A DNA stretch of 28,139 nucleotides from the NCBI GenBank assembly GCA_051002495.1, contig JBPCMH010000223.1, forward strand, positions 1-28,139, read 5' to 3'. This stretch comes from Acidimicrobiales bacterium. GTDB taxonomy: Bacteria > Actinomycetota > Acidimicrobiia > Acidimicrobiales > CADCTF01. The position numbers were made by a program, and so were the translations under genes. The notes below the pieces were generated by a model. That model made no database searches, was not told the DNA's origin, and worked only from the letters and a program-made list of their open reading frames with translations. Positions 13,313-28,139 of the stretch are shown in pieces. Positions within the stretch are counted from its first letter, which is position 1. Every line of letters begins with the position of its first letter.

Positions 13313-15466
13313 TCAGAACGATGACCGGGCTTCTCCAGCCGCGACCCGCTGCTCGAGCTCCTCTAGCAGCGCATCAACCTTGCCCCGTTCCTCATCGCCG
13401 AGTGGACGTGGTCCGAACCCGTCAGCCTCGATCGCCGAGCCGAGCGCTTCCAACCGTGGATCCGGCAGCACGCTGAACCGCAAGGCTCTGGCGTAGCGGG
13501 CTGGCGCCTCGGTCGGGCGTCGCTCGCGTCCCGCTTCTGCACCGAGCTCTTCGAGGCGATCCATGGCCACCACCCGCCAAGGGCGCGCCCGGCGTTCGCT
13601 CCTTCCGACGACGACGCGCCGCGTTCGGTCACCGATCAGGCCGGCCAGCAACAACCCACCGATCGCCGTCGCGATCAGGATCATGGTGGAGCGGGAAGGA
13701 AGACGACCACCGAGCCAGGTCGCCAGGCCGGAACCAGCACGGTCGGACACGTAGTCGCCAGCGAGCGGAACCTCCGCGGTGGGGTCGAATGCCTGCCACC
13801 CGACGCCGGGGAACAGCACCTCAGCCCAGGAATGCGCGTCTGACGCACGAACCTCGTAGAGGCCGGTGAAGGGGTTCCGTTCGCCCGGCGTGTAACCAAC
13901 CGCCAAGCGGGCGGGAATGCCGAGGGACCGCAACATCACCACCAGCGAGGAGGCAATCTGTTCGCAGAAGCCCTGCCTGTCCTCGAACAAATACTGCTCA
14001 ACGGCGTCGGCCCCACGGGGCAGCGGTGGGATGTCGAGGGTGTAGGTGGTGTTGACCGCCATCCACCGTTCGAGCGCCCTCACCTTGTCATAGGTGCTGG
14101 GCTCGCCCTGGGTGACATCCCGGGCCAGAGCCGCAACTCTGGCGGGCAGAGGCTCGGGCAGTTGCAGATACCGAGCCCGCAGCGACTGCCAATCCGGCGA
14201 GTCGGGAAGGAGGACCGCGTCAGAGCTGCGCAGCATGGGCTCATCAACCCGAAGCCGGCGGCTCGACACGGTGTAGACGGCGCCCTCGTTCAGCTCGACA
14301 CCGGTTCTGATCGTGCCATCGCTCATCTCGAAGACGGCGCGATCGGCGATGTAGAGCTGGTCAGCCACGTTGGCCGCGAAGATCACGTTTGGCCCGGCCC
14401 GCTCGATGTAGAAGGTCTGCACGAACGGTTCGCCCCGCTCCCGGATCTGCTGGGCGACGTCCTCGGGCGCGCCCCGGAGGCTGATCGGCGACTCGCTGCG
14501 ATTCACTTCGGGCTTGTCATCGGTCTGACGCCACGTCCGGCCGTCCCAACTGTCAAACGTCTGACCTCGCCAGAAGTCTGGTCGGGAGGCCTTGACCCGC
14601 ATAACGAGGGTGTTGTCCGGCCGGCCTCGGATCGATGTGTCGAGCTCGGTCGAGAACCCGAAATAGCCGAAGGATGCCCGGCCGCCCTGGTCCTCGCCGG
14701 GCCGGCCAGGGTCACTTTGGCCGAGCGACGAGTTGGAGAGCCCACCCGCTTGCGGGACGGCGAGTCGGCTACGCAGGCTGGCCGGAAACGTGACCGCCCG
14801 ACCGGGACCGGCCTGGGGCACGACCAGCATCACCAGCAAGCCGAGCGCCAACACGAGCGTTGCCGCGGCGACGATTGGCCCAATACCGCTCGCCTTGATT
14901 GGCGGAGGTGACGGTGCCCCGTCGCGCACCGAAAGCGCCGGCAGGTCACGGAGCTCGCTGCGATAGGCCAACGCCAGCGAAACCAGAGCTGCCACGGCCC
15001 ACACCGCGAGGTTGATACCCAAGCCGGTCGAGCGGGAGAGCACGCCAGCAACGCCGATGAGCACGAGGCTCGACACGAGGGAGAAGAGAAGATCGCGCCT
15101 GGCGGGAACATCCATGGAATGCAGCACCTGCACCCAGAGGAAGAGCTCTGCTAGCGGCACCTGCACGGCCAGAACCTCCGATGCGCTGAACACCCGCATC
15201 AGGAAACCGGCGAACGCGACAACCACACCGATCGCGAGGAACGCCTTCAGGACAAACCCTGGTCGGAATCGCGCCCAGTGCGAATAGGCGAACCCACCGG
15301 CGACGCCGGCGGTCGCACCGATCTGAAGCCCGATACCGCCGATCCCCTGGCCCACAACCGCGTGGATGGCTGCCAGCACAGCGATGAGCACTGCGACCCG
15401 GAACGGGATCGACTCCTCCGGGGTGGCCTTGGCGTTGACCTTCCGGATGCTGTCCATCGCGCTCAT
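13313..15466 (-). CDS. Membrane transglutaminase-like protein (TgpA/DUF3488 type)
   Basis: Multi-TM N-terminus, YWRG-like FWRGQTFD, and a Cys-His-Asp triad in GFCEQIAS...GIPARLAVGY...DAHSWAE...FDPT. Confidence 0.9.
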   Translation of the reverse strand: MSAMDSIRKVNAKATPEESIPFRVAVLIAVLAAIHAVVGQGIGGIGLQIGATAGVAGGFAYSHWARFRPGFVLKAFLAIGVVVAFAGFLMRVFSASEVLAVQVPLAELFLWVQVLHSMDVPARRDLLFSLVSSLVLIGVAGVLSRSTGLGINLAVWAVAALVSLALAYRSELRDLPALSVRDGAPSPPPIKASGIGPIVAAATLVLALGLLVMLVVPQAGPGRAVTFPASLRSRLAVPQAGGLSNSSLGQSDPGRPGEDQGGRASFGYFGFSTELDTSIRGRPDNTLVMRVKASRPDFWRGQTFDSWDGRTWRQTDDKPEVNRSESPISLRGAPEDVAQQIRERGEPFVQTFYIERAGPNVIFAANVADQLYIADRAVFEMSDGTIRTGVELNEGAVYTVSSRRLRVDEPMLRSSDAVLLPDSPDWQSLRARYLQLPEPLPARVAALARDVTQGEPSTYDKVRALERWMAVNTTYTLDIPPLPRGADAVEQYLFEDRQGFCEQIASSLVVMLRSLGIPARLAVGYTPGERNPFTGLYEVRASDAHSWAEVLFPGVGWQAFDPTAEVPLAGDYVSDRAGSGLATWLGGRLPSRSTMILIATAIGGLLLAGLIGDRTRRVVVGRSERRARPWRVVAMDRLEELGAEAGRERRPTEAPARYARALRFSVLPDPRLEALGSAIEADGFGPRPLGDEERGKVDALLEELEQRVAAGEARSSF

Positions 15467-15467
15467 G

Positions 15468-16385
15468 TCACCACGCCCCGACCACGATCACTTCGCCTGT
15501 GGCGAATCCATCTGGGACGGGCTGTGGGCCTGATCCGTGAGCACGGGCCAGACGCCGGCCCGCCTCGGTGGCGGTGGTGACGGGGCCGGCGACAGTGCCG
15601 GAGTGTTCCCGGGTGACGAGCACCACGCGGCGACCAGCGATGAGCGCGGCCCCGATCAGCCCCGCGGTCTTGCCGGCAGCACGTTCGGCCTGATCCACCG
15701 GACCGCTGAGGTCGGGAGTCACGACGAGCACGCGCTCAGGGTCTCGCTCAAGTTCCTTGATCATCGGCTCGCCGCGGCGGGCCGTGGCTGGCCAGTGCAT
15801 CAGCCGAACCGAGTCACCGGCACGGTATTCGCGGGCGCCCCTGACAGTGTCGCCATCTCCGGCTGACCGGGCAAGTGCGTCGCCATCTTCAGGGGCTGCA
15901 CCGTCTGCCTCGGGAACGTCGTACGGAAGCGGGGCGGGACCGACCTCGATCGCGGGCGTGAGCGGACGCTTCCACCGCCGCTTCCACCAGAAGACGCCAA
16001 GCGGCGCCCCGCACTCCGCAGCCAACCGCACCTCGGTCAGCACGCCTCGGCATTCCGGCACGAACGCCAGGCCGCCAACCGCGCCGCCCACCACGCTTGT
16101 CCATGGCCCCGGCGGGTCGACGACCCTGATCCGCATGGCGGGACCAGTCACGGTCACGATGAGTTCGGATGGTGAACCCGCCGTCGCGTCGTGAGGGCTT
16201 TGTAACTCGATGTCGGCGCGAATCATGGCCAGAGCGGGCATCACGACACCAGCAATCAGCAGACCGGCCGCCACCGACACAACCACGATGATCCATCCTG
16301 ACCCCGTCGTGCGGGCGATCCCCCACAACGCCAAGCTGACCGCGATCAGCGTGACCGCAGTCCGGCTCAGCCGGCCAGGGCGCAT
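15468..16385 (-). CDS. DUF58 domain-containing protein
   Basis: Two N-terminal TM segments and GAREYRAGDSVRLMHWPATARRG (REY-x2-GD...HW-x-ATAR, the DUF58 hallmark); sits between moxR and the transglutaminase. Confidence 0.88.
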   Translation of the reverse strand: MRPGRLSRTAVTLIAVSLALWGIARTTGSGWIIVVVSVAAGLLIAGVVMPALAMIRADIELQSPHDATAGSPSELIVTVTGPAMRIRVVDPPGPWTSVVGGAVGGLAFVPECRGVLTEVRLAAECGAPLGVFWWKRRWKRPLTPAIEVGPAPLPYDVPEADGAAPEDGDALARSAGDGDTVRGAREYRAGDSVRLMHWPATARRGEPMIKELERDPERVLVVTPDLSGPVDQAERAAGKTAGLIGAALIAGRRVVLVTREHSGTVAGPVTTATEAGRRLARAHGSGPQPVPDGFATGEVIVVGAW

Positions 16386-16387
16386 CG

Positions 16388-17398
16388 TCAGGCCTTCGGC
16401 GTCGGTACCGTTTCGAGCAGTCGCTCGACGATGGCCGCGGCCGCTCCTCCGTCGGCCGATCCGGCCAGCACGAGGCGATGGCTGAGTGCGGCGACGGCGA
16501 CAGCCCGAACGTCATCGGGCGACACATAGGGGCGCCCACTGAGCGCGGCGTTGGCCTTGGCCGAGTGGAGCAGGGCAATGCTCGCTCGCGGGCTCGCACC
16601 GAGCCGCACATCCGGGTGATGTCGCGTGCCGTCGGCCAGGTCGAGCACATAGTCGGCAACGGCGGGCGCGCAATGCACCTGCCGGACGATCCCGACTGCG
16701 GCCTCGATGCCGTCCGTAGGACACACCGGGCCCAGTTCGGCGAGGTGATCGGTGCCGCCAACGCCAAGCAGGAGCTCCTTCTCGGCATGGCGAGGCGGTG
16801 GTCCGAGCTCGACCAGCAAGCCGAACCGGTCGCGTTGGCCTTCGACCAACGGGAAGGTGCCAGCGTGATCGATTGGGTTCTGGGTGGCGACCACGAAGAA
16901 CGGTGCGGGGAGGGGCCAGGTGGTGCCGTCGACGGTCACCTGCCGCTCCTCCATGGCCGCGAGGAGCGCCGACTGCGTGCGGGGCGTTGCCCGGTTGATC
17001 TCATCGACCAGCACAACGTGGTGGAACAGGGGACCAGGACGGAACTCCCAATCGTCGGTGTCCCTTCGCAGCACGCTGACCCCAGTCACGTCGGCTGGCA
17101 GCAGATCGGGCGTGCCCTGAACCCGGCCGAACGAACCCCCTACCGATTGGGCCAGAGCTTTGGCCAGCAAGGTCTTACCGACGCCGGGCACGTCCTCGAG
17201 CAAAAGGTGATGGCCACTGAGGAGTGCGACCAGCGCGAGGCGCACAGCATCGGGCTTGCCCCGCACGACCTTGCCCAAGTTGTCGGTCATGGCCCGGCCA
17301 AGGTCGGCAACGGCTTCAACAGCCAGGCCATGAGCCGTCGCGGTGCGCGGCAAGTCAGTCGACGCTGAGGTCACGTCTCCATCATCGGCCATCTGCAC
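16388..17398 (-). CDS. moxR: MoxR family AAA+ ATPase
   Basis: HLLLEDVPGVGKT (Walker A), RVQGTPDLLPADVTG, LVDEINRATPRTQSALL (Walker B), ATQNP, DRF and GASPRA. Start uncertain (17398, 17392 or later). Confidence 0.93.
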   Translation of the reverse strand: MQMADDGDVTSASTDLPRTATAHGLAVEAVADLGRAMTDNLGKVVRGKPDAVRLALVALLSGHHLLLEDVPGVGKTLLAKALAQSVGGSFGRVQGTPDLLPADVTGVSVLRRDTDDWEFRPGPLFHHVVLVDEINRATPRTQSALLAAMEERQVTVDGTTWPLPAPFFVVATQNPIDHAGTFPLVEGQRDRFGLLVELGPPPRHAEKELLLGVGGTDHLAELGPVCPTDGIEAAVGIVRQVHCAPAVADYVLDLADGTRHHPDVRLGASPRASIALLHSAKANAALSGRPYVSPDDVRAVAVAALSHRLVLAGSADGGAAAAIVERLLETVPTPKA

Positions 17399-17415: not shown

Positions 17416-18318
17416 TCAGCCGGAGAAGTCCGGTAGGTCCTGTTTTCGCGAAACGACCTCGGCGAACAGGTCACCGTGCGCGGCCACTCGGTCCAACACT
17501 TGACCGGTCTCGAAGACGAGTGCTGTGGGGTCGCCAGCATCGACCTCCGCCCAGGTCACGGGGGTCGAGACGGTCGGCCGGGCTCTGGCGCGCATGGAGT
17601 AAACGGCAATCGTCGTCTTGTGCTGGTCGTTCTGGCTCCAGTCCACGAAGATCTTCCCGGTCCGTTGATCTTTGGCCATGATCGACGTGACGAGCTTGGG
17701 GTGTTGTTTCTCGAGAAGTTGGGCCACGGCCATGGCGAACGACTTCGTGTCGTCATACGTCGTTGTGCCGTTGTTCAGCGGCACGTACACCTGCATGCCG
17801 TTTGACCCGGACACTTTCGGCCACGCCTCCAGTCCGAGTACACCGAAGAGCTCCCTGAGGAGCAGCGCGACCTCGCAGCACTCCGCCAGTCCGGCCGGGG
17901 GCCCAGGATCAAGGTCGAACGCGACCACGGTCGGATGGTCGGGCGCTTCGCCCTGATGCAACTGGGGGTGCAACTCGAGCGCGGCCAACTGAGCCAGCCA
18001 CACGATGGTCGCCGTGCTGTCGGCCACCACGAAGTCGATGGTCCGCTCGCTGTGCCCGCTCCACACGGCCGAGGTGGTGACCCAGTCCGGCTTGTGTGAA
18101 GGCGTGTTCTTCTCGAAGAAGAACTGCTGGTCGACCCCGTTGGGATAGCGCTTGCGGGTGAGCGGTCGTCCGTCGAGGTGAGAGAGCAGCACCGGGGCGA
18201 TGCGGGCGTAGTAGTCGATGACCTCGCCCTTGGTGAAGCCGGTCTCGGGGTAGAGAACCTTGTCGAGGTTGGTCAGGGAGATCTCGTGGCCGTCGATCTC
18301 GACGGTCGCTTTCTTCAC
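17416..18318 (-). CDS. ligD: Stand-alone LigD polymerase (AEP/PrimPol) domain of non-homologous end joining
   Basis: LTNLDKVLYP, TKGEVIDYY, RYPNG, FFEKN, FDLDPG and FVDWSQN. At 300 aa it has no ligase or phosphoesterase domain. GTG start overlaps the ku stop (GTGA). Confidence 0.92.
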   Translation of the reverse strand: MKKATVEIDGHEISLTNLDKVLYPETGFTKGEVIDYYARIAPVLLSHLDGRPLTRKRYPNGVDQQFFFEKNTPSHKPDWVTTSAVWSGHSERTIDFVVADSTATIVWLAQLAALELHPQLHQGEAPDHPTVVAFDLDPGPPAGLAECCEVALLLRELFGVLGLEAWPKVSGSNGMQVYVPLNNGTTTYDDTKSFAMAVAQLLEKQHPKLVTSIMAKDQRTGKIFVDWSQNDQHKTTIAVYSMRARARPTVSTPVTWAEVDAGDPTALVFETGQVLDRVAAHGDLFAEVVSRKQDLPDFSG

Positions 18319-19145
18319 TCGGCGCCGTCGTTCTGTTTGTCGTCTTCCGGCTTGTTGCCCCGGGCCTCCCTGGCCGCGTTGACGCTGGCCTCGAGGGCGG
18401 CCAACAGGTTTTCGACCTTGGCCGGCTCGGCTTCGGTAGCCGGCGCGGTGAAGACCTCACCGGCTGCTTTGGCCTCGATCAGTTCCATGACCTTCTCGCG
18501 ATAGGTGTCTTCGTACTTCTCCGGCTCAAAGTCATCCGCGGTCAAGGAGTCGATGAGCTGCTTGGCCATCTTGACCTCCTTCTCGGTGAGCTCGATGTCG
18601 TCGCCGGGGAGGCCTTCGAGATCATCGGCGTCAACGATCTCATCGGCGTAGTTCATGATCTCGATGATCAGCACACCGTTCTTGACGCGAATCGCGGCGA
18701 GATACTCTTTGGTGCGCATCACAAACTTCGCGATCGCCACCTTGTCGGTCTCTTCGAGGGCCTCGGCCAGCAACTTGTACGGCTTGCCAGCTCGTTGGTC
18801 GGGCACCAGGTAATACGGCTTGTCGAAATACAGCGGGTCGATCTGGTCGAGGTGTACGAACTCCTCGATCTCGATCGTGTGGGTCGCCTTCGGATCGAGC
18901 GATTCGAGCTCGTTTGGCTCGAGCACGACGTATTGGTCGGGCGCGACCTCATAGCCCTTAACGATCTCGTCGTACGGAATCTCTTCGCCGGTGACCGCGC
19001 TGACACGCTTCTGCTTGATGCGGGCGTTGTCCTTGCTGTGCAGCTGGTTGAACCGCACGTCTTTCTGCGACACCGCGGTGAACAGCTTGACCGGGACATT
19101 GACCAAGCCGAAGCTGATGGATCCACTCCAGATGGGGCGAGGCAT
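18315..19145 (-). CDS. ku: NHEJ Ku protein
   Basis: MPRPIWSGSISFGLVNVPVKL, VKGYEV, IEIEEFV, YFDKPYYLVP and YEDTYREKV; minimal Ku with a short acidic tail. Confidence 0.97.
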   Translation of the reverse strand: MPRPIWSGSISFGLVNVPVKLFTAVSQKDVRFNQLHSKDNARIKQKRVSAVTGEEIPYDEIVKGYEVAPDQYVVLEPNELESLDPKATHTIEIEEFVHLDQIDPLYFDKPYYLVPDQRAGKPYKLLAEALEETDKVAIAKFVMRTKEYLAAIRVKNGVLIIEIMNYADEIVDADDLEGLPGDDIELTEKEVKMAKQLIDSLTADDFEPEKYEDTYREKVMELIEAKAAGEVFTAPATEAEPAKVENLLAALEASVNAAREARGNKPEDDKQNDGAE

Positions 19146-19182
19146 TCCCCCATTGTTCCCGAAAACTCAAGTACGTGGTCCC

Positions 19183-21021
19183 TTAGCGGTACGACGCGGC
19201 CTGGAGCTCGAACAGCTCGGCGTAGGTTCCACCCTGGGCCACGAGCTCCGCGTGGGTGCCAACCTCGGCAATCCCGTTGTCGGCGATGACCACGATGAGA
19301 TCGGCCATGCGGACCGTCGAGAAGCGGTGGCTGACGAGCAAGGTGATCGCCCCTCGCCCAACGCCGGCGTCGCGTGCCGCGGCGGCATAGCGCTCGAACA
19401 GCTCATGTTCGGTCTGCGGATCGAGCGCGGCGGTCGGTTCGTCGAGCAGGAGCACCAGCGGTTCGGTCCGCATCATGGCGCGGCCGATGGCCAACTTTTG
19501 CCACTGACCGCCAGAGAGCTCGACGCCACCTTCGAAGCTGCGCCCGAGCAGCGTCTCCCCTCCGGCGGGCAGCTCACCGAGAACGCCGTCTGCCGCGGCT
19601 CGGGACAATGCGGAGTCGACAGCGCCGGGTGAATCGGCCTCCGAGAGGTCGCCGATACCCACCGTCTCAGCGGCCATGAGCTCAAACTTGGCGTAGTCCT
19701 GGAATCCGGCCGAGAGCACGTGCCGCCAGTGGTCTACGTCGAAGTCGCGCAGGTCGACACCATCCACGGTGATTTGACCTTCCGTAGGGTCGTAGTACCG
19801 AGCGAGGAGCTTGACCAGCGTCGACTTGCCTGCCCCGTTGTCACCCACGATCGCGACGATCGACCCGGCGGGAATGTGCAGATCGGTCGTCGTGAGCACG
19901 GGCTTGTCGGTGCCCGGATAGACGAAGCTGACCGCCTCGAGCCGTATCCCATCGGTCAACCGTTCAGGGACCGCTTTGGGCTCGGGTGGATGGGTGGCCG
20001 CGACGGCCGTTCGGTGATGAGCCATGAGCCAGGCGTATCGGTCAGCGGACTTGAGCGACTCGATCAGCCACTGCCACATGCTGGTCAACTGCTGCACGCG
20101 CCCTCGCACTTGGGCGCCCAGGCTCACGGTCACGACCACGTCGCCGACGGTTGCCTGGCCGCGGCTCGCTCGGTTCACCATAAGCAGCAGGGCGGCGACG
20201 TAGCCGGCAGCAAACACCGACCACCCGATGGCCGCGACCAGTTGGTAGCGGATGGTCACCCGCAGCGTGTCGGTCTCCATCGACTTCCAGATCCGATCGC
20301 GGTGATCGATGACTTCGTCCTGCAGCCCGAAGACCCGGATCTCCTTGGCCGGCGCGGCCTCGGTTGCCATCTGGAACAGGTGCCGACGGATCCGGCCCCG
20401 CTCGGCCAGGTCTTCCCTGAGCTTCTCCAGCGAAGTGGATGTTCGGTGGCTGATGACGGCACTGGGGATGCCGCACAGAGGGAGCAGCAGGAGGGGCGCA
20501 TCCAGGCGACCCAAGATGGCGACAGTGGTGATGAGCTGGATGACGCCGTTCGCGAGCCAGATCACCGCGCTTGGCGCGCTGGCCAGCGCGCTGCGCTGCT
20601 GGTGCAAGAGCTGCAACTTGTCGGCGTAGTCGGCCCGTTCGAAGTGCTCGAGGGTCGGTGTGGTGGCGGTGAGCCTCACCAGCTCCTCGTCGATGTAGTG
20701 GGTGGTTCGTTCCCTTACCTGCATGTCGAGCGGGAAGCGCAGCGCGCTGCCCCATGACTGCACGATGAACAACCCCACGAAGATGGCGAGGCCCATCACG
20801 GCCCGCTCGCGATCAGCCTGCACGACAGCCTCGGTGAGGATGCCGAGTCCGACCGCGTAACCCGGCGTCGCGACGCCTTGGACGATCCTCAACAGCGTGA
20901 CCGCCGATGAACGCCAAGGATCGGCCTTGAAAGCCGCGGTCACAACGGCTCTGGCGCCCACCCAGCGATCAGCCACCGATGCCAGCCTCTGCGATCTTGG
21001 TTGGGTCGGATTCCGGGTCAT
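19183..21021 (-). CDS. ABC exporter, fused permease/ATP-binding subunit (second half of the pair)
   Basis: TM domain followed by GDNGAGKST, LSGGQWQK, LLLDEPT and SHRFST. Start may instead be GTG 20976. Confidence 0.92.
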   Translation of the reverse strand: MTRNPTQPRSQRLASVADRWVGARAVVTAAFKADPWRSSAVTLLRIVQGVATPGYAVGLGILTEAVVQADRERAVMGLAIFVGLFIVQSWGSALRFPLDMQVRERTTHYIDEELVRLTATTPTLEHFERADYADKLQLLHQQRSALASAPSAVIWLANGVIQLITTVAILGRLDAPLLLLPLCGIPSAVISHRTSTSLEKLREDLAERGRIRRHLFQMATEAAPAKEIRVFGLQDEVIDHRDRIWKSMETDTLRVTIRYQLVAAIGWSVFAAGYVAALLLMVNRASRGQATVGDVVVTVSLGAQVRGRVQQLTSMWQWLIESLKSADRYAWLMAHHRTAVAATHPPEPKAVPERLTDGIRLEAVSFVYPGTDKPVLTTTDLHIPAGSIVAIVGDNGAGKSTLVKLLARYYDPTEGQITVDGVDLRDFDVDHWRHVLSAGFQDYAKFELMAAETVGIGDLSEADSPGAVDSALSRAAADGVLGELPAGGETLLGRSFEGGVELSGGQWQKLAIGRAMMRTEPLVLLLDEPTAALDPQTEHELFERYAAAARDAGVGRGAITLLVSHRFSTVRMADLIVVIADNGIAEVGTHAELVAQGGTYAELFELQAASYR

Positions 21022-22897
21022 CCCAGTAGCGGGATGCCTGCAGGGTGAACAGCCGGGCGTAGGTACCAGCCAGGGCCATCAGAGAGTCGTGGTTGCCGTC
21101 CTCCACGACCCTGCCCTCATCAAGGACGACGATGCGGTCGGCGCGGCGGACAGTCGAGAACCGGTGGGAGATGACGATGGTGGTCAACCCGGCGGTGAGG
21201 TCGAAGAACCGCTCGTAGATCTCGGCCTCGGTGCGCACATCGAGATTCGCGGTCGGCTCGTCAAGCACCAACACTCCTGCCCCGCCTTCGACCGCCATCA
21301 GAGCCCTGGCCAAAGCCAGACGCTGCCACTGGCCGCCGGACAAGTCGGTGCCGCCGGTCATCTGCCTGGACAGCGGCGTGTCCCAGCCCGACTCGAGACC
21401 CTCGATGATGCTCAGGGCGCCGGCGCGATCGGCGGCCCGCTCGACCAAGGCCATGTCCCCGTGATGAGCGGGCGCGCCGTACCCAACGTTGTATCGGGCG
21501 GCCAGTTCCCACCGCTGGAAGTCCTGGAAGATGGCGGCGATGCGGGTTTGCCAATCGGTGGCGTCAAGATCCTCAACCGGGATGCCGTCGACCGTGATGC
21601 GGCCTCCGGTCGGAACGTGAAGCCGGGCGAGCAACTTCACCAGAGTGGTCTTGCCTGCGCCGTTGGCTCCGACAATGGCCAAGCTCTCACCGGCGCGAAT
21701 AGTGAGGTCGAGATCGGTGTAGACGTGGTCGGGACGGCCCGCGTAGCAGAAGCTCACCGACTCAAAACGAATCTCCCGCTTGGGGAGTCCGGTTGCCGGC
21801 GCACCTCCTTCGGAGCGCATCGCGAGCAACTCCTGTTCGAGTTCGAGCATGACTGGAATGGTGGCAACACCCTCGGAGATCATGTGGTCCCAGTCGCCGA
21901 CCGCGCCGAGCGAGCTCGCATTGAAGACTGCGCTCATCGTCATCACGACCACTGCCAACGTGATCTGTCCGTCGATGCCGGCCAGGACGACGGTCGCCAA
22001 GGTGCCGATCTGCACGACGAAAGCCAAGCCGGTCACCAAGAACGTGGTCGGCCTCCCCTTCATCTTCGGCCACACCGTCGCCATCGCCTCGCGCCAGGCC
22101 TGATCGAATCGCCGCCCGATCCACGACTCCAGCGAAAACACGCGCAACTCTTTCGCCGCTTCAGGGGTCAACGCGGCGTCGCGGAAGTAGTTGGACCGCC
22201 GATGAATCTGACCCTTGTCGAAGATCGCGATCGTGACGTCGTCGAACAGCCGGCGCCACCAGGCCCGCTCGAGCAACACGGCAACCGAGATTGCCACGGC
22301 CAGCCACCAGCGGAACCGGCCGATGATCAGGAGGGAGCCAATGCCGGCCAACCGGGTGCTGTACATCTGCACCATGCCGTTGACCGCGCCGCCCGGAGTG
22401 AAGCTGCCGATCAATCCTTCGGCCTTGGCGATCTGATCGAGCACGGCTGGGTCTTCCAGGTGGGCGATCGACGGCGGGGCGAGCGCGGCCGCGGTCAGCC
22501 GGTTGCTGATGTGGCGATCGAACCGTCGGGCCAGGGTGCTCTGAGCCAACCCAAACATCGGCAACAGACCGAGCTGCGCGACATACAACAGAGCCACGAT
22601 CGCGAGCGCCCGGTAGAGCGCCGAGCCAGCACCGCCGTCAAGGCCGTCGGTAACTGCAGCCGGTATACGGCCGACGAGCACGCCAGTGGCGATCGTGAAC
22701 GCCGGGGTGAGGACCGCGCCAACGACCATGCCGACGAGCGTCAGAAACGTGAGGAGCCGGCTGACGCCCGGAAGTTGGCGGACCAGCAGAACCCGGGACG
22801 AACCCCAGATGGCCGATGGCCGCGTGCTGTCGAGGAACGCAGCCACCCTGCCAACGGGGCGCGCGGTCGCATCAGCACCGTTGGAGGGGGTGGGCAT
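20969..22897 (-). CDS. ABC exporter, fused permease/ATP-binding subunit (first half of the pair)
   Basis: TM domain followed by GANGAGKTT, LSGGQWQR, LVLDEPT and SHRFST. Confidence 0.92.
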   Translation of the reverse strand: MPTPSNGADATARPVGRVAAFLDSTRPSAIWGSSRVLLVRQLPGVSRLLTFLTLVGMVVGAVLTPAFTIATGVLVGRIPAAVTDGLDGGAGSALYRALAIVALLYVAQLGLLPMFGLAQSTLARRFDRHISNRLTAAALAPPSIAHLEDPAVLDQIAKAEGLIGSFTPGGAVNGMVQMYSTRLAGIGSLLIIGRFRWWLAVAISVAVLLERAWWRRLFDDVTIAIFDKGQIHRRSNYFRDAALTPEAAKELRVFSLESWIGRRFDQAWREAMATVWPKMKGRPTTFLVTGLAFVVQIGTLATVVLAGIDGQITLAVVVMTMSAVFNASSLGAVGDWDHMISEGVATIPVMLELEQELLAMRSEGGAPATGLPKREIRFESVSFCYAGRPDHVYTDLDLTIRAGESLAIVGANGAGKTTLVKLLARLHVPTGGRITVDGIPVEDLDATDWQTRIAAIFQDFQRWELAARYNVGYGAPAHHGDMALVERAADRAGALSIIEGLESGWDTPLSRQMTGGTDLSGGQWQRLALARALMAVEGGAGVLVLDEPTANLDVRTEAEIYERFFDLTAGLTTIVISHRFSTVRRADRIVVLDEGRVVEDGNHDSLMALAGTYARLFTLQASRYWDDPESDPTKIAEAGIGG

Positions 22898-22904
22898 TTG
22901 CCCG

Positions 22905-22910
22905 AGTCTA
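22905..22910 (-). promoter_or_regulatory. Putative -10 element (TAGACT) for a leaderless ABC-pair transcript
   Basis: TANNNT 7 nt before ATG 22897. Confidence 0.5.
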
Positions 22911-22970
22911 GGGTCGGCCCGGCACCGTCCCGAGTGGAATTTCGGAGGCGACGAGCGCGATCACCCCGCC

Positions 22971-22992
22971 TGTCACGGTTGACTGGCACCCT
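22971..22992 (+). promoter_or_regulatory. Putative DNA-damage-inducible promoter (TGTCAC-N10-CACCCT) upstream of nurA
   Basis: Same geometry as the element before mre11. It resembles the PafBC/RecA-NDp consensus TGTCGG-N10-TANNNT. ATG lies 5 nt downstream. Confidence 0.45.
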
Positions 22993-22997
22993 GGGGC

Positions 22998-24005
22998 ATG
23001 ACCGATCTCGCCGCTGGCCCGGCCGCCAACGCTGCCCCGTTGGAAGTAGCCGCAGCCCGGCTGGCCGCGCTGCTCACCGGTGAGGCCACGGCCATCTCCG
23101 ACCCCGGCAACGGCACCGACCTGGTCTTCGAGTCAGTCATCGGGTTGCGACCGTTGGTCCGCACCGACGCGCCAGCCGATGTCTGGGCCGTCGATGGCGG
23201 GCAAGCGCTCGTGGCCGACGGTCGGTGCCTCCAGGTCGTCGTGACCCGTGCGGGCCGCGTCCGCTTCCAGGACCGTGTGGCGACGTTCGAAGAAGAAGGC
23301 CAGCTGCGACCCGCGCTGCTTGGCCTCGGCGAACAGGCCGACGCCCGGGCCGGGTTGGCACTTGATGGGCTGGCCGCGGACTGCGCGGTTGATCTCAACC
23401 TGCTCCGCGACCGCTGGGAATGGGATGCGGTCGAGCGATCGATCGCCGAGGCTGATCCGGGGGCTCTGGTCCTCGTCGACGGCGATTTGCAACCCGACTG
23501 GCGCATCCCATCGCATTACCTGGCAAGACTCTTCGCCGCGGCATCCTCAAGGGGCGTGATGCTGGCAAGCGTCACTAAGCACTCGTCGCTGGCTCGGGGA
23601 GGCGCTCCGCTTCTGGGTGCTCTCGAGCGGGAGGCGGCCGAGCTGTTCGGTGAGCGGGCGATGTGGTGGGCCCCGGTGGCCCGCACCCGCAGCGATGTCG
23701 AGCCGGGCATCCAGGTTGCGATGGCTCGCCTCGACCCCGATGCCCGCTTCTCGTTCAGAATCGACCTGCCGGGCGACGCCGATCCGGAGATCGTTCTCGG
23801 CTCCCTGTCCGCGTTGTGCGACGACGCGGCCTTTCCTGGCTACCCGTACCCGCTGACGGTCGCCGACCGCTTGGCGGCGTGCCCGGGCTGGGTCCGCCAA
23901 GAAGTACGCATGCAACTCGACGACCTGCTCGATGCAACCGGGGTCCCGTTCGATGTCCGCGAGCGAGCCTTCGCCGACCGCCACCGACTCATGGAGCGCT
24001 CATGA
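22998..24005 (+). CDS. nurA: DNA double-strand break repair nuclease NurA
   Basis: WAVDGG (D66), RWE (E141), LVLVDGDL (D161), ASVTKHS and GYPYPLTVADRLA follow the NurA motif order. The stop overlaps the herA start (ATGA). Confidence 0.85.
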   Translation: MTDLAAGPAANAAPLEVAAARLAALLTGEATAISDPGNGTDLVFESVIGLRPLVRTDAPADVWAVDGGQALVADGRCLQVVVTRAGRVRFQDRVATFEEEGQLRPALLGLGEQADARAGLALDGLAADCAVDLNLLRDRWEWDAVERSIAEADPGALVLVDGDLQPDWRIPSHYLARLFAAASSRGVMLASVTKHSSLARGGAPLLGALEREAAELFGERAMWWAPVARTRSDVEPGIQVAMARLDPDARFSFRIDLPGDADPEIVLGSLSALCDDAAFPGYPYPLTVADRLAACPGWVRQEVRMQLDDLLDATGVPFDVRERAFADRHRLMERS

Positions 24006-25582
24006 CCGAGTCCACGATCAGAGGTCGGCTGTATGGCCGCAACGTCCTAGAGGGCGAGTTCCGGGCCGCGCCGGATGACGACCTGTTCCTCGGCGAGCTG
24101 CTGGTTGGCGTCGACGACTCGACCGGTCGCCGCTATCTCTTCCGCATCACCGACGTCACCTACGGCACCGAACACCGGGAGCCAGGCTGGGCCGAGCGAG
24201 TAGCTGGCACGCTCCTCGCCGACGACGCTCGGGGGGAAGCCGGAGCGCACCCGCTCTATGAGCAGGCGAGGCGCACGTACCGGGTGGCGAAGTGTTCGTG
24301 TCTCGGCTATCTCACACCCGACGGCACCGAGTTCCGCAAACCTAAGAGCCTTCCGACCCAGTTCAGCCAGGTGGTCGCGCCGGAAGCGACCGACTTCGCG
24401 TTCCTCGAAAGTCGCATGGGCGACCTTCCTATCGGGCTGCTGCGATCGGGCGAGACCACCGTCGACTTCTCCGTCGGCATCCCGGGCTCCGCCCTCGCCA
24501 CCCACGTCGGCATATTCGCCACGACCGGCATGGGCAAGTCGAACCTGATGCAAGTGTTGGCTGGCGGCGTCATGCGGGCCAACGGCGCCTACGGCCTGCT
24601 CGTCGTCGACCCCCACGGCGAGTACCGCACCTCGCTGGCCAAACATCCGTGGGCCGGCGAGCGACTGCGAACGTATGCGGCTCGCCGCCTCCCCAACACG
24701 TCGATGCTGCGCGTGAGCCTCGGCGAACTGAGCGTCGACGACCTCCGAACCGCCTACGAGTGGAGCCGACCCCAGGAGGAAGCGCTGTTCGAGCTGGAGC
24801 GGCACTACGGAACCTCTTTCGGCACCGGGCTGGCCTGGCTGCTTCCGTTCTCTCAACTCGACCAACTCCCCGAGTTTCGCGACATCGAGCTCGGCAACCG
24901 GGTCGCGCTCAACACGCTGCAGGTGGTGCACCGCCGGGCGCGGCGCATTGTCGACCTGCCGTGTGTTGCCACCGACGCCAACGTCTCCGTAGGCGGCTCC
25001 GTCGTGCGCGACCTCGAGGACGGCCGCGTGGTCCTCATCGACGTCAGCGGCTTGGGATCGACCGAGGAAGTGCTCGTTGCTTCGTTTCTGACCCGGCGTG
25101 TGCTCGATCACTGGCAGAGCGCCTATCTCGATGAGCCCGACCTTCATGAACGGATGCCGGTGGTGGCGATCGTGCTCGAAGAGGCCCAACGCGTGCTGTC
25201 GCGCAACCGCGACCGCGAGTCCAACGTGTTTCCACGGGTGGCGAGGGAGGGTCGCAAGTTCAAGACGGGCCTGGTGGCCATCACCCAGCAGCCGAAGTTG
25301 CTCGACGATGAGCTGCTCAGCCAGTTCAACACCTTCTTCATCCTGGGCTTGGCCGACGAGAAGGACCGCAACATCCTGCGGTCATCCTCGAAGCAGGACA
25401 TCTCCGCCCTCGGTAATGAGATCCAGACGCTCATGCCCGGCGAGTGCCTGGTGGCGTCGCTGGCCGCGCCGTTCGCCATTCCGGCCCGCATCCATCTGTG
25501 GTCACAACTTTGCAAAGACACACCGCCAGCGCCGGCTCCTCGCCCCTCGCCTGCCGCGAACGTCTCCGCCCTGGTCGACTGA
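24002..25582 (+). CDS. herA: HerA family DNA translocase/helicase (HerA/FtsK-type ATPase)
   Basis: N-terminal beta-rich HAS-barrel-like region, HVGIFATTGMGKSN (Walker A), VVDPHGEY, IVLEEAQRV (Walker B), RVAREGRKF, ITQQP and SQFNT. True start is ATG 24002 (MTESTIRG), not 23663. Confidence 0.92.
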   Translation: MTESTIRGRLYGRNVLEGEFRAAPDDDLFLGELLVGVDDSTGRRYLFRITDVTYGTEHREPGWAERVAGTLLADDARGEAGAHPLYEQARRTYRVAKCSCLGYLTPDGTEFRKPKSLPTQFSQVVAPEATDFAFLESRMGDLPIGLLRSGETTVDFSVGIPGSALATHVGIFATTGMGKSNLMQVLAGGVMRANGAYGLLVVDPHGEYRTSLAKHPWAGERLRTYAARRLPNTSMLRVSLGELSVDDLRTAYEWSRPQEEALFELERHYGTSFGTGLAWLLPFSQLDQLPEFRDIELGNRVALNTLQVVHRRARRIVDLPCVATDANVSVGGSVVRDLEDGRVVLIDVSGLGSTEEVLVASFLTRRVLDHWQSAYLDEPDLHERMPVVAIVLEEAQRVLSRNRDRESNVFPRVAREGRKFKTGLVAITQQPKLLDDELLSQFNTFFILGLADEKDRNILRSSSKQDISALGNEIQTLMPGECLVASLAAPFAIPARIHLWSQLCKDTPPAPAPRPSPAANVSALVD

Positions 25583-25622
25583 GCCAGATCCGGCGAGAAC
25601 GAACCGGCTGACGGGCCTTGGC

Positions 25623-25641
25623 ACCGGCGTGTCACACCGGT
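25623..25641. promoter_or_regulatory. 19-bp imperfect palindrome ACCGGCGTGTCACACCGGT overlapping the TGTCAC element
   Basis: Reverse complement is ACCGGTGTGACACGCCGGT, so 16 of 19 positions match. Confidence 0.4.
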
Positions 25642-25651
25642 CTGCGACCAT
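25630..25651 (+). promoter_or_regulatory. Putative internal DNA-damage-inducible promoter (TGTCAC-N10-GACCAT) upstream of mre11
   Basis: Lies in the only sizeable gap (75 bp) of the four-gene operon; ATG is 6 nt downstream; same hexamer and spacing as before nurA. Confidence 0.45.
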
Positions 25652-25657
25652 GAGGTC

Positions 25658-26773
25658 ATGAAGGTTGCTGCCATCGGCGACGCCCACCTGGGCCGCTCGT
25701 ATCTCAACGTCGTCTCCGACGCGGGCATCAACCAGCGCGAGCACGACTTCGAGTTGTCGTTCTCCGCTGCCGTCGACCTCGCCCTGGCCCAAGAGCCCGA
25801 CGTCATCGTGTGGCTCGGCGACATCTTCGACCATCCTCGACCGAGTTATCGGTCGTATCGGGTCGCCCAGCGGGCGTTGGGCAAGATTCGCGACCACGGC
25901 GTGCCGTTGGCGCTGATCACCGGAAACCACGACACCCCCCGCCTTCCTGGCACCGGCAGCCCGTACTCACCCCTGGCCGATGCCTTCCCGGAGATGCACT
26001 TCGCACACCGGCTCTCCTATGAGCGTTTCGAACTGGCTGGCCTGGTTATCCATGCCGTCCCCCAGATGATGACCGTCGAGGCCACCCTCGACGCCCTAGC
26101 CGAGGCCGACCGCCAGCGCAGCGCCGACAAGTCAAACCTGCTCCTGACCCATCCCCGCATCACCCAGGTCGAGCCGCGCTATGCCGACATCAACGAGATC
26201 GAGGTCGACGCGTCAGTTCTGAAGAGCGACTTCGTGCTGCTTGGCCACTACCACTTCCACACCAAGGTCCGCGAGGGCATCTGGTACGCGGGATCCACCG
26301 ACACCTTCACTTTCGCCGACGACCCTGACAAGGCAAAGGGCATCCTGGTGCTCGACACCGACACCGGCGACTGTCGCCACGTTCCGCTCGCCGATCAGCG
26401 ACCGATGGTCACGCTCGACACCATCGAAGCCATCGGTCTCGGTCACAAGGAGTTGGCCGAGTTGGTGCTCAGCCGCGCCGCCTCCGCACCGGACGGATGC
26501 GTGGCCCGCCTCTACATCGACGGCGTCGACCCGGAGGCCTACCGCCTGCTCGACGTGGAGGAGATTCGGGCGGCCTCGGCGCAGACGCTCCACCTCAAGT
26601 TGGAGCCCTCGTTCATGGGCGTCACGGTGCCGGTCGAGCTGCCAGAGATGGACTCCATGCCCGCCCGGTGGGATCGCTACATGGAAGATCAGGATCTAAC
26701 CGGCTACGACCGAGAGAAGGTCAAGTCGCTCGGGCACGACTACCTGTCCCGCGCGGTGGAGTCGGCCGGCTGA
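25658..26773 (+). CDS. mre11: Mre11/SbcD-type DNA repair metallophosphoesterase nuclease
   Basis: Five phosphoesterase motifs: GDAHLG, GDIFD, GNHD, LTH and GHYH. The stop overlaps the rad50 start (TGATG). Confidence 0.92.
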   Translation: MKVAAIGDAHLGRSYLNVVSDAGINQREHDFELSFSAAVDLALAQEPDVIVWLGDIFDHPRPSYRSYRVAQRALGKIRDHGVPLALITGNHDTPRLPGTGSPYSPLADAFPEMHFAHRLSYERFELAGLVIHAVPQMMTVEATLDALAEADRQRSADKSNLLLTHPRITQVEPRYADINEIEVDASVLKSDFVLLGHYHFHTKVREGIWYAGSTDTFTFADDPDKAKGILVLDTDTGDCRHVPLADQRPMVTLDTIEAIGLGHKELAELVLSRAASAPDGCVARLYIDGVDPEAYRLLDVEEIRAASAQTLHLKLEPSFMGVTVPVELPEMDSMPARWDRYMEDQDLTGYDREKVKSLGHDYLSRAVESAG

Positions 26774-28139
26774 TGCTGATCCATCGCCTCTACCTCCGCA
26801 ACTACCGGGTCTACGAAGACGAGCTCGACCTCGCCCTGCCCGGAGGATTGGTCGGCATCTTCGGGCCCAACGGCGCGGGCAAGAGCGCCCTCATTGAGAG
26901 CATCCGCTGGACGCTGTGGGGCAAGAGCCGCACCGACAAGAAGGAGATCCGCACCTCCGGCGTCAACGCCGATTGCATCACCGAGGTCGAGTTTGAGCAC
27001 GAGGGCCACCTGTACCTGGTCCGTCGCACCATCTCCGGCGTGGGCCACACCGTGAAGGCAGAGGTGCACGCCGACGGCAACATCGTCAACGAGGGCGTGA
27101 ACGACGTGAAGCGCTATCTCGAGTCGGTGCTGGGCATGGACGACACGGCATTTCGCGCGTCGGTCTTCGCCGAACAAAAGCAACTGGCCTCCTTCAGCAC
27201 CGACGTCCGACCCGAGCAGCGTCGCCAGCTCGTGTTGGCGTTGCTTGGGATCACGCCGCTCGAGGGTGCCCGCGACCTGGCCCGGAAGGATGCCAGGGAG
27301 GCCAAAGACCGATACGACCGGCTGCGCGGCTTGCTGGCCGACGTCGAGGCACTGCAGATGGCCGCGGAGATGGCCGACGCCAAGGCGGTCACGGCTGAGG
27401 CTGAGGCCGAGACCGAGGCAGAGGTCGCCGGCACGGCCAAGGAGCGCGTGGGCGGCGCCGAGGCCGCGGTGGAGGCGCTGGAGGCGGCGCGGCGCGAATA
27501 CGACGAGATCGTCGCCGACGGCAAGGCGGCCCGTTCTGAGGCGGAGCGCGCGGCCAAGAAGGTGGATGCCCTCACCATCGAGGTGGCCGAGCTCGACGGG
27601 CTGGAGCAGCGCATCGCGGAGTTGCGGCCGAGAGCCGACGGCCTCGATGCCGCGCAGGCGCGGCTGTCGATGGTGGAGCGCGTCGTCGAAGCCGAGGAGG
27701 CACTGAGGGGCGTCGCCGTCGGCGATGAACCACCGGTTCCCGACACGGATGGCCTGGCCGACGCTCAGCGCGGAGCCGAGCAGGCTGCAGCCGCGTTGGC
27801 CGAGACGATGGGGGCGTTGTTGGGGGCGCGAGAGCAAGTGAAGCGAGTCGAGCTGGCCCTGGCCCGGGCGGCGGAGGCCTCCGCCGATGACGTATGCCCC
27901 ACGTGTGGGCAAGCGCTGGGTGATGCCTTCGCCCAGGTACGGGCCCACCGCCAGGACGAGGTCGAGGCTGAGCGCGACCGGGTCGGCGCCCTTGAGGCAC
28001 GCCAGGTCGACGACAAAGAGGCCGCGGCGGCGGCCGCCGAGGCGTTGCGGCAAGCGACCGCGACAATCCGCCAGGCCGAACAAGCGCGCCGCGCGTGGGA
28101 GCAAGCGGCCACCCGGAAGGCCGAGGTGCAGGCCCGCTT
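26773..28139 (+). CDS. rad50: Rad50/SbcC SMC-like ATPase, N-terminal part (runs off the right edge)
   Basis: Hand translation: MLIHRLYLRNYRVYEDELDLALPGGLVGIFGPNGAGKSALIESIRWTLWG..., Q-loop VFAEQKQ, long Ala/Glu-rich coiled coil and zinc-hook CPTCG at 27895-27909. Open to the window end; absent from the ORF track. Confidence 0.93.
   Translation, partial: MLIHRLYLRNYRVYEDELDLALPGGLVGIFGPNGAGKSALIESIRWTLWGKSRTDKKEIRTSGVNADCITEVEFEHEGHLYLVRRTISGVGHTVKAEVHADGNIVNEGVNDVKRYLESVLGMDDTAFRASVFAEQKQLASFSTDVRPEQRRQLVLALLGITPLEGARDLARKDAREAKDRYDRLRGLLADVEALQMAAEMADAKAVTAEAEAETEAEVAGTAKERVGGAEAAVEALEAARREYDEIVADGKAARSEAERAAKKVDALTIEVAELDGLEQRIAELRPRADGLDAAQARLSMVERVVEAEEALRGVAVGDEPPVPDTDGLADAQRGAEQAAAALAETMGALLGAREQVKRVELALARAAEASADDVCPTCGQALGDAFAQVRAHRQDEVEAERDRVGALEARQVDDKEAAAAAAEALRQATATIRQAEQARRAWEQAATRKAEVQAR

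Follow-up and report, generated by a model that had tools for sequence, protein, structure and literature searches.

Close linkage of a ku and primase-polymerase gene pair with a nurA-herA-mre11-rad50 operon in part of the Acidimicrobiales

The repair of double-strand breaks (DSBs) in bacteria is usually described in terms of recombination driven by RecBCD, AddAB or AdnAB, to which end joining by Ku and LigD is added in some lineages. In archaea (Sulfolobus, Pyrococcus, Thermococcus) the genes for end resection form an operon in the order herA-mre11-rad50-nurA, and in eukaryotes the MRN complex acts on ends that are bound by Ku. In the passages cited here, the HerA-NurA pair of Deinococcus radiodurans is described as the sole bacterial pair studied biochemically, and it is presented there as HerA and NurA alone, with a contact between HerA and RecJ (PMC8708640). 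The subject of this work is a stretch of DNA from an Acidimicrobiales bacterium in which genes for Ku and a primase-polymerase (Prim-Pol) lie close to a nurA-herA-mre11-rad50 operon. This stretch, which we will refer to as the window, is the whole of contig C223 (28,139 bp) of a metagenome-assembled genome (MAG) of 3.18 Mb and 503 contigs, which is 78% complete and 5.6% contaminated, and the close protein relatives of its genes carry Acidimicrobiales labels. Its minus strand contains seven closely packed genes (ABC2, ABC1, Ku, Prim-Pol, MoxR, DUF58, and a TgpA-like transglutaminase), and its plus strand, beginning 100 bp from ABC2, contains nurA, herA, mre11, and rad50. The start codons of ku and nurA are 3,852 bp apart, with the two ABC half-transporter genes between them. 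The original prediction for this DNA, which had placed two repair routes about 3.9 kb apart on divergent strands, is in agreement with this distance, and the repair genes that it named are all found where it had located them. The repair genes of the window (lengths in amino acids, aa) are:

17416-18318, minus strand: stand-alone Prim-Pol of non-homologous end joining (NHEJ), LigD Pol domain only, 300 aa (PF21686, 8.3e-89)
18315-19145, minus strand: bacterial Ku, 276 aa (TIGR02772, 1e-97; PF02735, 3.3e-53)
22998-24005, plus strand: NurA-type nuclease, 335 aa (predicted fold and coupling with herA)
24002-25582, plus strand: HerA-type hexameric ATPase, 526 aa (PF01935, 9e-20, 72.2 bits; cut-off 23.2)
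25658-26773, plus strand: Mre11-type nuclease, 371 aa (Metallophos PF00149, 1.2e-9, 39.3 bits; cut-off 21.5)
26773-28139, plus strand: Rad50-type ATPase, N-terminal 455 aa (AAA_23, 2e-17, 65 bits; cut-off 27)

The window operon has in common with the archaeal end-resection operon the four protein families, the Rad50 zinc hook, the coupling of nurA with herA and a NurA whose modelled fold is nearest to that of Sulfolobus solfataricus. It differs from the latter in its bacterial host, in its gene order of nurA-herA-mre11-rad50 (the archaeal order being the one given above), in that its proteins miss the equivalog cut-offs, in its linkage to Ku and Prim-Pol, and in being preceded by a candidate promoter box of the actinobacterial damage type. 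The D. radiodurans pair (PDB 7f6d) is likewise bacterial and its NurA chain 7f6d_G is matched by the model of the window NurA; however, in contrast to that pair as described in the cited passages of PMC8708640, HerA and NurA are encoded here in one operon with Mre11-Rad50 and beside Ku. The mycobacterial set of NHEJ and AdnAB/RecBCD functions has its counterpart in this genome in Ku, a LigD-type polymerase, LigD- and LigC-type ligases, an AdnAB-like pair, and RecA. Unlike in mycobacteria, the LigD domains are split over genes on different contigs, two Prim-Pol genes are present, an archaeal-type resection operon linked to ku is added to the set, and RecC was not found in the 78% complete assembly. 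The likeness to Ku and MRN(-CtIP) of eukaryotes consists of an end binder and an Mre11-Rad50 nuclease in one cell, together with a long-range resection motor and nuclease; it is an analogy only, and competition, removal of Ku or cell-cycle-like control would be hypothetical here.

The reading that we favor, and which we regard as rather likely, is that the window contains two separately transcribed DSB repair units that have been kept as neighbors in part of the Acidimicrobiales. The distribution of the linkage was examined by a NurA-alignment scan of one genome per GTDB species, which gave 189 relatives; the 80 of these that are nearest to the window NurA were kept as loci L064-L143, and Ku and Prim-Pol near nurA were sought in them by tblastn with the window proteins. 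The primpol-ku pair was divergent from nurA and less than 1 kb away from it in 32 of the 80 species loci, and it was located 1-7 kb upstream of nurA in seven others. No Ku was found near nurA in 36 species loci having at least 300 bp of upstream sequence (at least 1 kb in 33 and at least 6 kb in 12 of them), and the remaining five loci were too short for Ku linkage to be judged. Among 53 metagenome loci, Ku was directly adjacent in three, unlinked in 44, and six were uninformative. One of the direct primpol-ku/nurA arrangements is that of a cultured strain, Acidiferrimicrobium sp. IK (L141). As the adjacency is shown by 39 of the 80 related species loci, chance does not explain it, and the linkage is real, recurrent, and confined to part of the Acidimicrobiales. 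A proximity peculiar to this genome would have told against the original prediction, and it was at first suggested by seven relatives from a sample of the class; the wider species and metagenome scans overturned it, the linkage being present in 39 species loci (direct and back-to-back in 32) and in three metagenome loci.

In the class sample, which consisted of 301 genomes, a close HerA was present in eight genomes including that of the window, and Ku was found in all eight (a tally that includes the unpublished genomes G212, G254, and G275). The co-occurrence and synteny of ku with the operon, which the original prediction had proposed as a check, are thus observed in these eight of eight HerA-positive genomes and in 39 of the 80 species loci, respectively. 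Among 401 Actinomycetota genomes of a phylum sample, a HerA ortholog was detected in 37 (including the unpublished G383), and Ku was present in 30 of these 37 as against 188 of the 364 HerA-negative genomes; the Ku tallies take in 13 unpublished genomes, and no statistical test is attached to them because related genomes are not independent. Outside the class, the nurA-herA-mre11-rad50 order was retained in all 18 loci from other Actinomycetota classes (rad50 lying beyond the contig end in L158), and neither Ku nor Prim-Pol was found within about 10 kb upstream in any of the 18, among which G383 is not included. In two single-contig genomes of these classes, the distance between Ku and herA is 1.4 and 1.9 Mb. 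A full-text literature search, outside of which most subscription journals lie, turned up no report of a link between Ku/LigD and HerA-NurA in bacteria, Acidimicrobiia included.

The Ku protein of the window scored 326.7 bits against TIGR02772 (cut-off 150) over residues 3-255, by which the equivalog cut-off is passed, and 180.8 bits against PF02735 (cut-off 25); it is the single Ku match in its own assembly. The primpol gene and the stop of ku overlap by 4 nt, and the Prim-Pol protein scored 285.5 bits against TIGR02778 (cut-off 214.7) and 297.9 bits against PF21686 (cut-off 27.4). The original prediction had a LigD beside Ku, but this protein aligns only to the Pol part of the full-length LigD models, no ligase being present in the same protein as is required of a multidomain LigD, and no ligase or phosphoesterase domain was found in the window. 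The ligase domains of the assembly (PF01068) sit on other contigs, viz. a LigD-type ligase domain on C369 (TIGR02779, 276.6 bits) and a LigC-type ligase on C493 (NF006078, 523 bits), and a second Prim-Pol gene is present on contig C309.

In the resection operon, HerA, Mre11, and Rad50 passed their Pfam cut-offs and missed all NCBIfam equivalog cut-offs, their best NCBIfam matches being to archaeal repair models. The NurA-type protein missed its sequence cut-offs (15.5 bits vs. 21 for Pfam PF09376, E-value 0.013; 13.6 vs. 400 for NF041033); several of its close relatives carry a precomputed PF09376 match, and relatives are named NurA by NCBI. In a Foldseek search of the PDB, its AlphaFold model (predicted local distance difference test 84.7, predicted template modeling score 0.82) gave S. 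solfataricus NurA (2ygk, E-value 1.8e-11) as the best match, followed by TdpB, Thermococcus kodakarensis NurA, and Pyrococcus furiosus NurA (3tal), and it also matched D. radiodurans NurA (7f6d_G, E-value 4.5e-7). The window protein is predicted by this model to have the RNase-H-like fold of NurA. Two of its acidic residues, D66 (AVDGGQ) and D161 (VDGDLQ), are, along with other residues, invariant in 11 sequences and are candidates for catalytic residues. The start of herA overlaps the nurA stop (ATGA, 24002-24005), which constitutes translational coupling, and the adjacency of the two genes is maintained in related loci with enough DNA, though an aldo-keto reductase or patatin gene intervenes in some cases.

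The HerA protein contains both a Walker A (TGMGKS) and a Walker B (VLEEAQ) motif and is 78-84% identical to many Acidimicrobiales proteins; it scored below the cut-offs of the repair-HerA equivalogs NF040937/NF040819 (92.8 bits vs. 800, and 71.9 vs. 970). The phosphoesterase motifs GDAHLG, GDIFD, GNHD, and GHYH were found in Mre11, for which the best match among the Mre11 and SbcD equivalogs was to NF041031 (62.4 bits vs. 500), that to TIGR00619 being 47.9 bits (vs. 77.65). In Rad50, the Walker A motif GPNGAGKS is located at residue 31 and a CPTC zinc hook at residue 375, and its best NCBIfam match, the archaeal PRK01156 (104 bits), is under the cut-off. The rad50 gene ends at residue 455 with the contig, full-length relatives being 756-772 aa long, and the remaining piece was not found elsewhere in the 78% complete assembly. 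The herA-mre11 spacer in the window measures 75 bp (25583-25657). A seemingly conserved plus-strand open reading frame (ORF) between herA and mre11 in the related loci was rejected as an off-frame artefact of high guanine-plus-cytosine (G+C) content; judged by third-position G+C, most of the true genes in this interval are encoded by the minus strand.

The regulatory elements that were noted in the window are as follows:

19146-19182, minus strand: promoter-like element of ku, GGGAACAATGG, with -10 AACAAT at 19157-19152, 6 nt before the ATG
22971-22997, plus strand: candidate RecA-NDp-like nurA promoter, TGTCACGG-N8-CACCCT-N5-ATG, with the ATG at 22998
25630-25657, plus strand: second RecA-NDp-like box, before mre11, TGTCACAC-N8-GACCAT-N6-ATG, read from the herA-mre11 spacer

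The ku element fits in the 37 bp that follow ABC1, and, of the 39 related loci listed, most show a pattern of the form GGGnAnAATGG-N4-5-ATG, as read by eye, in front of ku, irrespective of the upstream neighbor. The ku transcript would be leaderless, and ku is independent of the ABC2/nurA intergenic region since its own element follows ABC1. The original prediction was correct in that the ABC pair alone separates the two routes and shares a 100-bp region (22898-22997) with nurA; this is not a control region shared by ku and nurA, however, as ku has its own conserved promoter after ABC1. The nurA start may similarly be leaderless. A TGTCAC box with the corresponding spacing and start pattern was present in 48 of 78 nurA upstream regions, in comparison to 0.28 on average and at most 2 in shuffled sequences and none in 69 herA-internal controls. 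The configuration seen before mre11 was found in five of 60 related loci (shuffled mean 0.27), and a TGTCAC-type box preceded ku in only one of 39 loci. As an observation on the herA-mre11 spacer, the presence there of its own element implies that mre11-rad50 could start independently of nurA-herA. In addition, 19 of the 78 nurA regions, for example those of L066, L068, L089, and L113, have a palindrome ATnACA-N4-TGTnAT directly upstream of the box (strict form; shuffled mean 0.31). This candidate operator occurs mostly in clades without an adjacent Ku and is not found in the window; as a genome-wide operator its strict form was rejected, as there were only six matches in the window's own genome, none of them informative.

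The recA gene of this genome is preceded by TTGTCACAC-N8-TAGGGT and by a LexA box (CGAAC-N4-GTTCG), and the boxes of nurA and mre11 share with it a TGTCAC-N10-(-10) layout. LexA is present in the genome, as is a tandem pair of WYL genes (on C72). According to the passages cited here, transcription is activated by PafBC via RecA-NDp, a motif that is not palindromic, and both PafBC and LexA control recA (PMC6789036, PMC8223512). The window's genome resembles the mycobacterial PafBC/RecA-NDp regulon in the non-palindromic TGTC box just upstream of the recA -10 element, the LexA box, and the tandem WYL pair, and the candidate nurA box resembles the damage promoter of this regulon. It would appear that the resection genes form part of a recA-like damage regulon, and this second unit is probably damage-induced, since its boxes match the recA layout and resemble RecA-NDp and the tandem WYL pair is present. 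No paper naming nurA-herA-mre11-rad50 as members of the PafBC regulon was found in the literature search.

Outside the window, the strict box also precedes a number of near-identical gene starts, a related DUF222 gene, and a SprT-like gene of the same genome. Five of these near-identical starts (MADRVVRVKGEVG...), on contigs C46, C201, C354, C376, and C460, each have a strict leaderless promoter of the form TTGTCACACCC-N-TAGGGT, which is also seen on C45 and C445. No Pfam match was obtained for the C376 copy that was scanned or for the C45 gene, and the related C445 gene is the DUF222 member. These genes look like a multi-copy damage-regulon family, which may resemble the 13E12 repeats of mycobacteria.

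On the reading that we favor, the first unit would be ku-primpol (in the window together with moxR-DUF58-tgpA), read from the short, leaderless promoter of ku itself. Ku would bind and hold the broken ends and Prim-Pol would fill or extend them, with sealing carried out by ligases encoded elsewhere, i.e. those with the LigD-type domain on C369 and of LigC type on C493. The second unit would comprise nurA-herA and mre11-rad50, each pair preceded here by a TGTCAC-N10-(-10) box, and, with an AdnAB-like enzyme working beside it, would generate 3' tails for RecA. Each part of this locus belongs, or nearly belongs, to a known family; the novelty lies in the conserved association of ku with the operon and in the regulatory layout, in which the resection operon carries the damage-type box of recA and ku does not. 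The archaeal-type operon itself is common in Actinomycetota (37 of the 401 sampled genomes). If the linkage is functional, it would provide a minimal setting for the decision between holding and resecting an end, with all components packed into a few kilobases and with Acidiferrimicrobium sp. IK as at least one cultured carrier, a strain that could serve as an experimental system. The two units may be functionally coupled, and the choice between Ku and Mre11-Rad50 pathways and the adaptation to desiccation or radiation that the original prediction proposed may apply here.

The explanation that competes best with this reading is historical accident, i.e. that ku-primpol landed once beside nurA in an ancestor of the Acidimicrobiales and that the synteny has since decayed slowly, with no selective or functional tie. 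The relevant trees were a quick-search NurA tree of all 80 species loci, two metagenome loci, the window and two long-branch outgroups, and a HerA tree of 67 of the 80 loci (13 with HerA matches of less than 480 aa were dropped) with 17 of the 18 loci from other classes as outgroup rows. Of the 26 directly linked rows that the HerA tree contained, 25 were in one 27-row clade, supported at 99 and nested in an unresolved polytomy, which fits simple inheritance. Accident is also in keeping with the lack of linkage in about half of the informative loci, whether through loss or from the outset, with the free insertion of unrelated genes at the junction, and with the different promoters of the two units. 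However, ku and nurA have stayed adjacent across a divergence of NurA down to 56-63% identity. Meanwhile the flank beyond primpol has changed: of 22 direct loci having at least 3 kb there, an ORF was found in 20, and these next genes represent 10 unrelated families. The herA and mre11 genes, too, have been split repeatedly. The linkage also occurs outside the large clade, viz. in the window's clade (eight rows, supported at 96 in the NurA tree and at 95 in the HerA tree), in L088, in L069/L070, and in L090, and both partners have functions in the handling of DSB ends. We consider accident unlikely, although it deserves to be taken seriously; if synteny were all that is involved, the locus would still be a record of a third machinery for resection that exists, next to AdnAB, in bacteria with Ku. 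One origin followed by several disruptions would be the simpler reading of these sequences, and we infer that the original arrangement was probably that of primpol-ku back-to-back with nurA, the ABC exporter pair having been inserted later in this lineage.

Several observations weigh against the reading of two units kept as neighbors. The NurA and HerA trees are in conflict on the directly linked loci, which are in two basal groups in the former and in one nested clade in the latter, and because of this disagreement no claim of an ancestral state or of repeated loss is made. Related species do not represent independent counts, and the fractions of the 80 loci (e.g. 39 of 80) are no population estimates, these loci being a non-random choice of the 80, out of 189, that are nearest to the window NurA. 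In the seven class-sample relatives with the operon, Ku is on another contig and nothing Ku-like was found in the 9-10 kb upstream of nurA, and the linkage is dispensable, as 36 of the 75 informative species loci have no Ku near nurA. With regard to regulation, the -10 elements of the window, CACCCT for nurA and GACCAT for mre11, are weak.

A more elaborate version of a functional tie is that primpol-ku and nurA-herA form a co-evolved module of pathway choice, with mutually exclusive promoters at which a PafBC-type activator bound at the TGTCAC box between them would flip repair from joining to resection after damage. In four compact loci, the predicted start codons of ku and nurA are only 52-80 bp apart and back-to-back, and the window would then have derived from such a form, its toggle relaxed by the inserted cargo. 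A transcriptional switch of repair choice of this kind would, if true, be one not described in bacteria. We find this version improbable, both for the compact loci and for the derivation of the window from them, and any promoter cross-talk of the compact loci cannot apply to the window because its ku-nurA gap is 3.85 kb, a point that also counts against the reading of two units kept as neighbors.

Less probable again, to a degree that we regard it as quite doubtful, is that Ku and Prim-Pol work as one integrated machine with NurA-HerA (with or without Mre11-Rad50) on the same end through direct protein contacts, for instance in limited resection followed by fill-in and joining, or in the stripping of Ku from ends by HerA-NurA/Mre11-Rad50. 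The constant core over the linked loci is primpol-ku beside nurA-herA, from which mre11-rad50 drifts off, and this, together with the estimated start codons that lie just tens of bp apart in compact loci and the action of eukaryotic MRN on Ku-bound ends, is what such a machine would lead one to expect. The separate and different promoters of the two units and the many species in which both units are present and unlinked argue otherwise. A predicted complex of two Ku chains and one NurA, given as alignments and run without controls, had a score of 0.00, which is evidence neither way.

A PADLOC search gave no system-level match, and no match for NurA, Mre11, Ku, PrimPol, MoxR, DUF58, or TgpA; there were partial ATPase matches of HerA and Rad50, with HerA at up to 89.9 bits and LmuB at 72 bits. 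That HerA, NurA, Mre11, and Rad50 are an anti-phage defence or mobile-element module with Ku as coincidental island content is ruled out as a defence-system reading by this result and has in our view only a very slight chance of being correct, for although HerA- and SMC/Rad50-like ATPases are found in defence systems, weak HerA and LmuB matches were obtained and the fold search also hit TdpB, the partial matches of HerA and of Rad50 do not surpass those to archaeal repair models, NurA, Mre11, Ku, and PrimPol are without any, HerA is 78-84% identical across many MAGs, the four-gene order is retained in 18 of 18 loci of other classes, the window has no tRNA and an even G+C content, and the promoter box is common to recA.

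The other genes in the window, which do not have a role in the reading of two neighboring repair units other than as its surroundings, are:

13313-15466, minus strand: TgpA-like transglutaminase (Transglut_core, 1.9e-27)
15468-16385, minus strand: DUF58 (Pfam DUF58, 3.7e-10)
16388-17398, minus strand: MoxR AAA+ (Pfam AAA_3, 3.5e-56)
19183-21021 and 20969-22897, minus strand: ABC exporter half-transporters, MsbA/CydDC-like (ABC_tran and ABC_membrane)

Every NCBIfam MsbA-like match of the ABC pair is under its cut-off. At the ku/nurA junction, this pair is complete only in the window and in L065, and partial in L066, L067, and L073. In other members of the window's clade (L064, L068, and L072), the junction is filled by a DAO-Rieske oxidoreductase, in some cases together with a two-component system, and other loosely linked loci (L070, L090, and L137) have different, unrelated genes there. 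A functional tie of the ABC pair to repair was ruled out, as close relatives have unrelated genes at this junction; because of these genes, the pair is regarded as lineage-specific cargo and the junction as a frequent insertion site. The oxidoreductase that stands in place of the ABC pair is a fused FAD-oxidoreductase (DAO)-Rieske gene, located at 8371-9891 in L064, 8400-9960 in L068, and 2214-3842 in L072. A chimeric join within the window is unlikely, because Logan contigs of one public run span Ku/ABC1 (18590-19611) and ABC2/nurA/herA (21294-25339), and the identical gene order is repeated in L065, a locus of an independent MAG.

In many related loci, minus-strand genes intervene between herA and mre11, viz. 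those of a NERD (nuclease-related domain) protein, a NUDIX hydrolase, and a MarR regulator, often accompanied by assorted metabolic genes. Such an interval is found in L102, L110, L125, L127, and other loci of the directly Ku-linked clade, and the NERD gene next to mre11 may be a further repair-related neighbor.

With regard to recombination functions elsewhere in this genome, the check for AdnAB or RecBCD that accompanied the original prediction gave an AdnAB-like pair on C222, consisting of a 916-aa protein with a C-terminal PD-(D/E)XK domain and a UvrD-type helicase truncated at the contig end, as well as RecA; RecC, as stated above, was not found in the 78% complete genome. Contig C486 carries CRISPR-Cas genes, including a Cas3 HD-domain protein and a Cas4-Cas1 fusion. 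The genes behind primpol follow each other closely, the successive gaps from primpol through MoxR and DUF58 to TgpA being 17, 2, and 1 bp, and the moxR-DUF58-tgpA trio is context and contains no repair genes. It was not seen behind primpol in the large directly linked clade; it follows primpol in L064, L065, L068, and L088, with MoxR alone, at the contig end, in L072.

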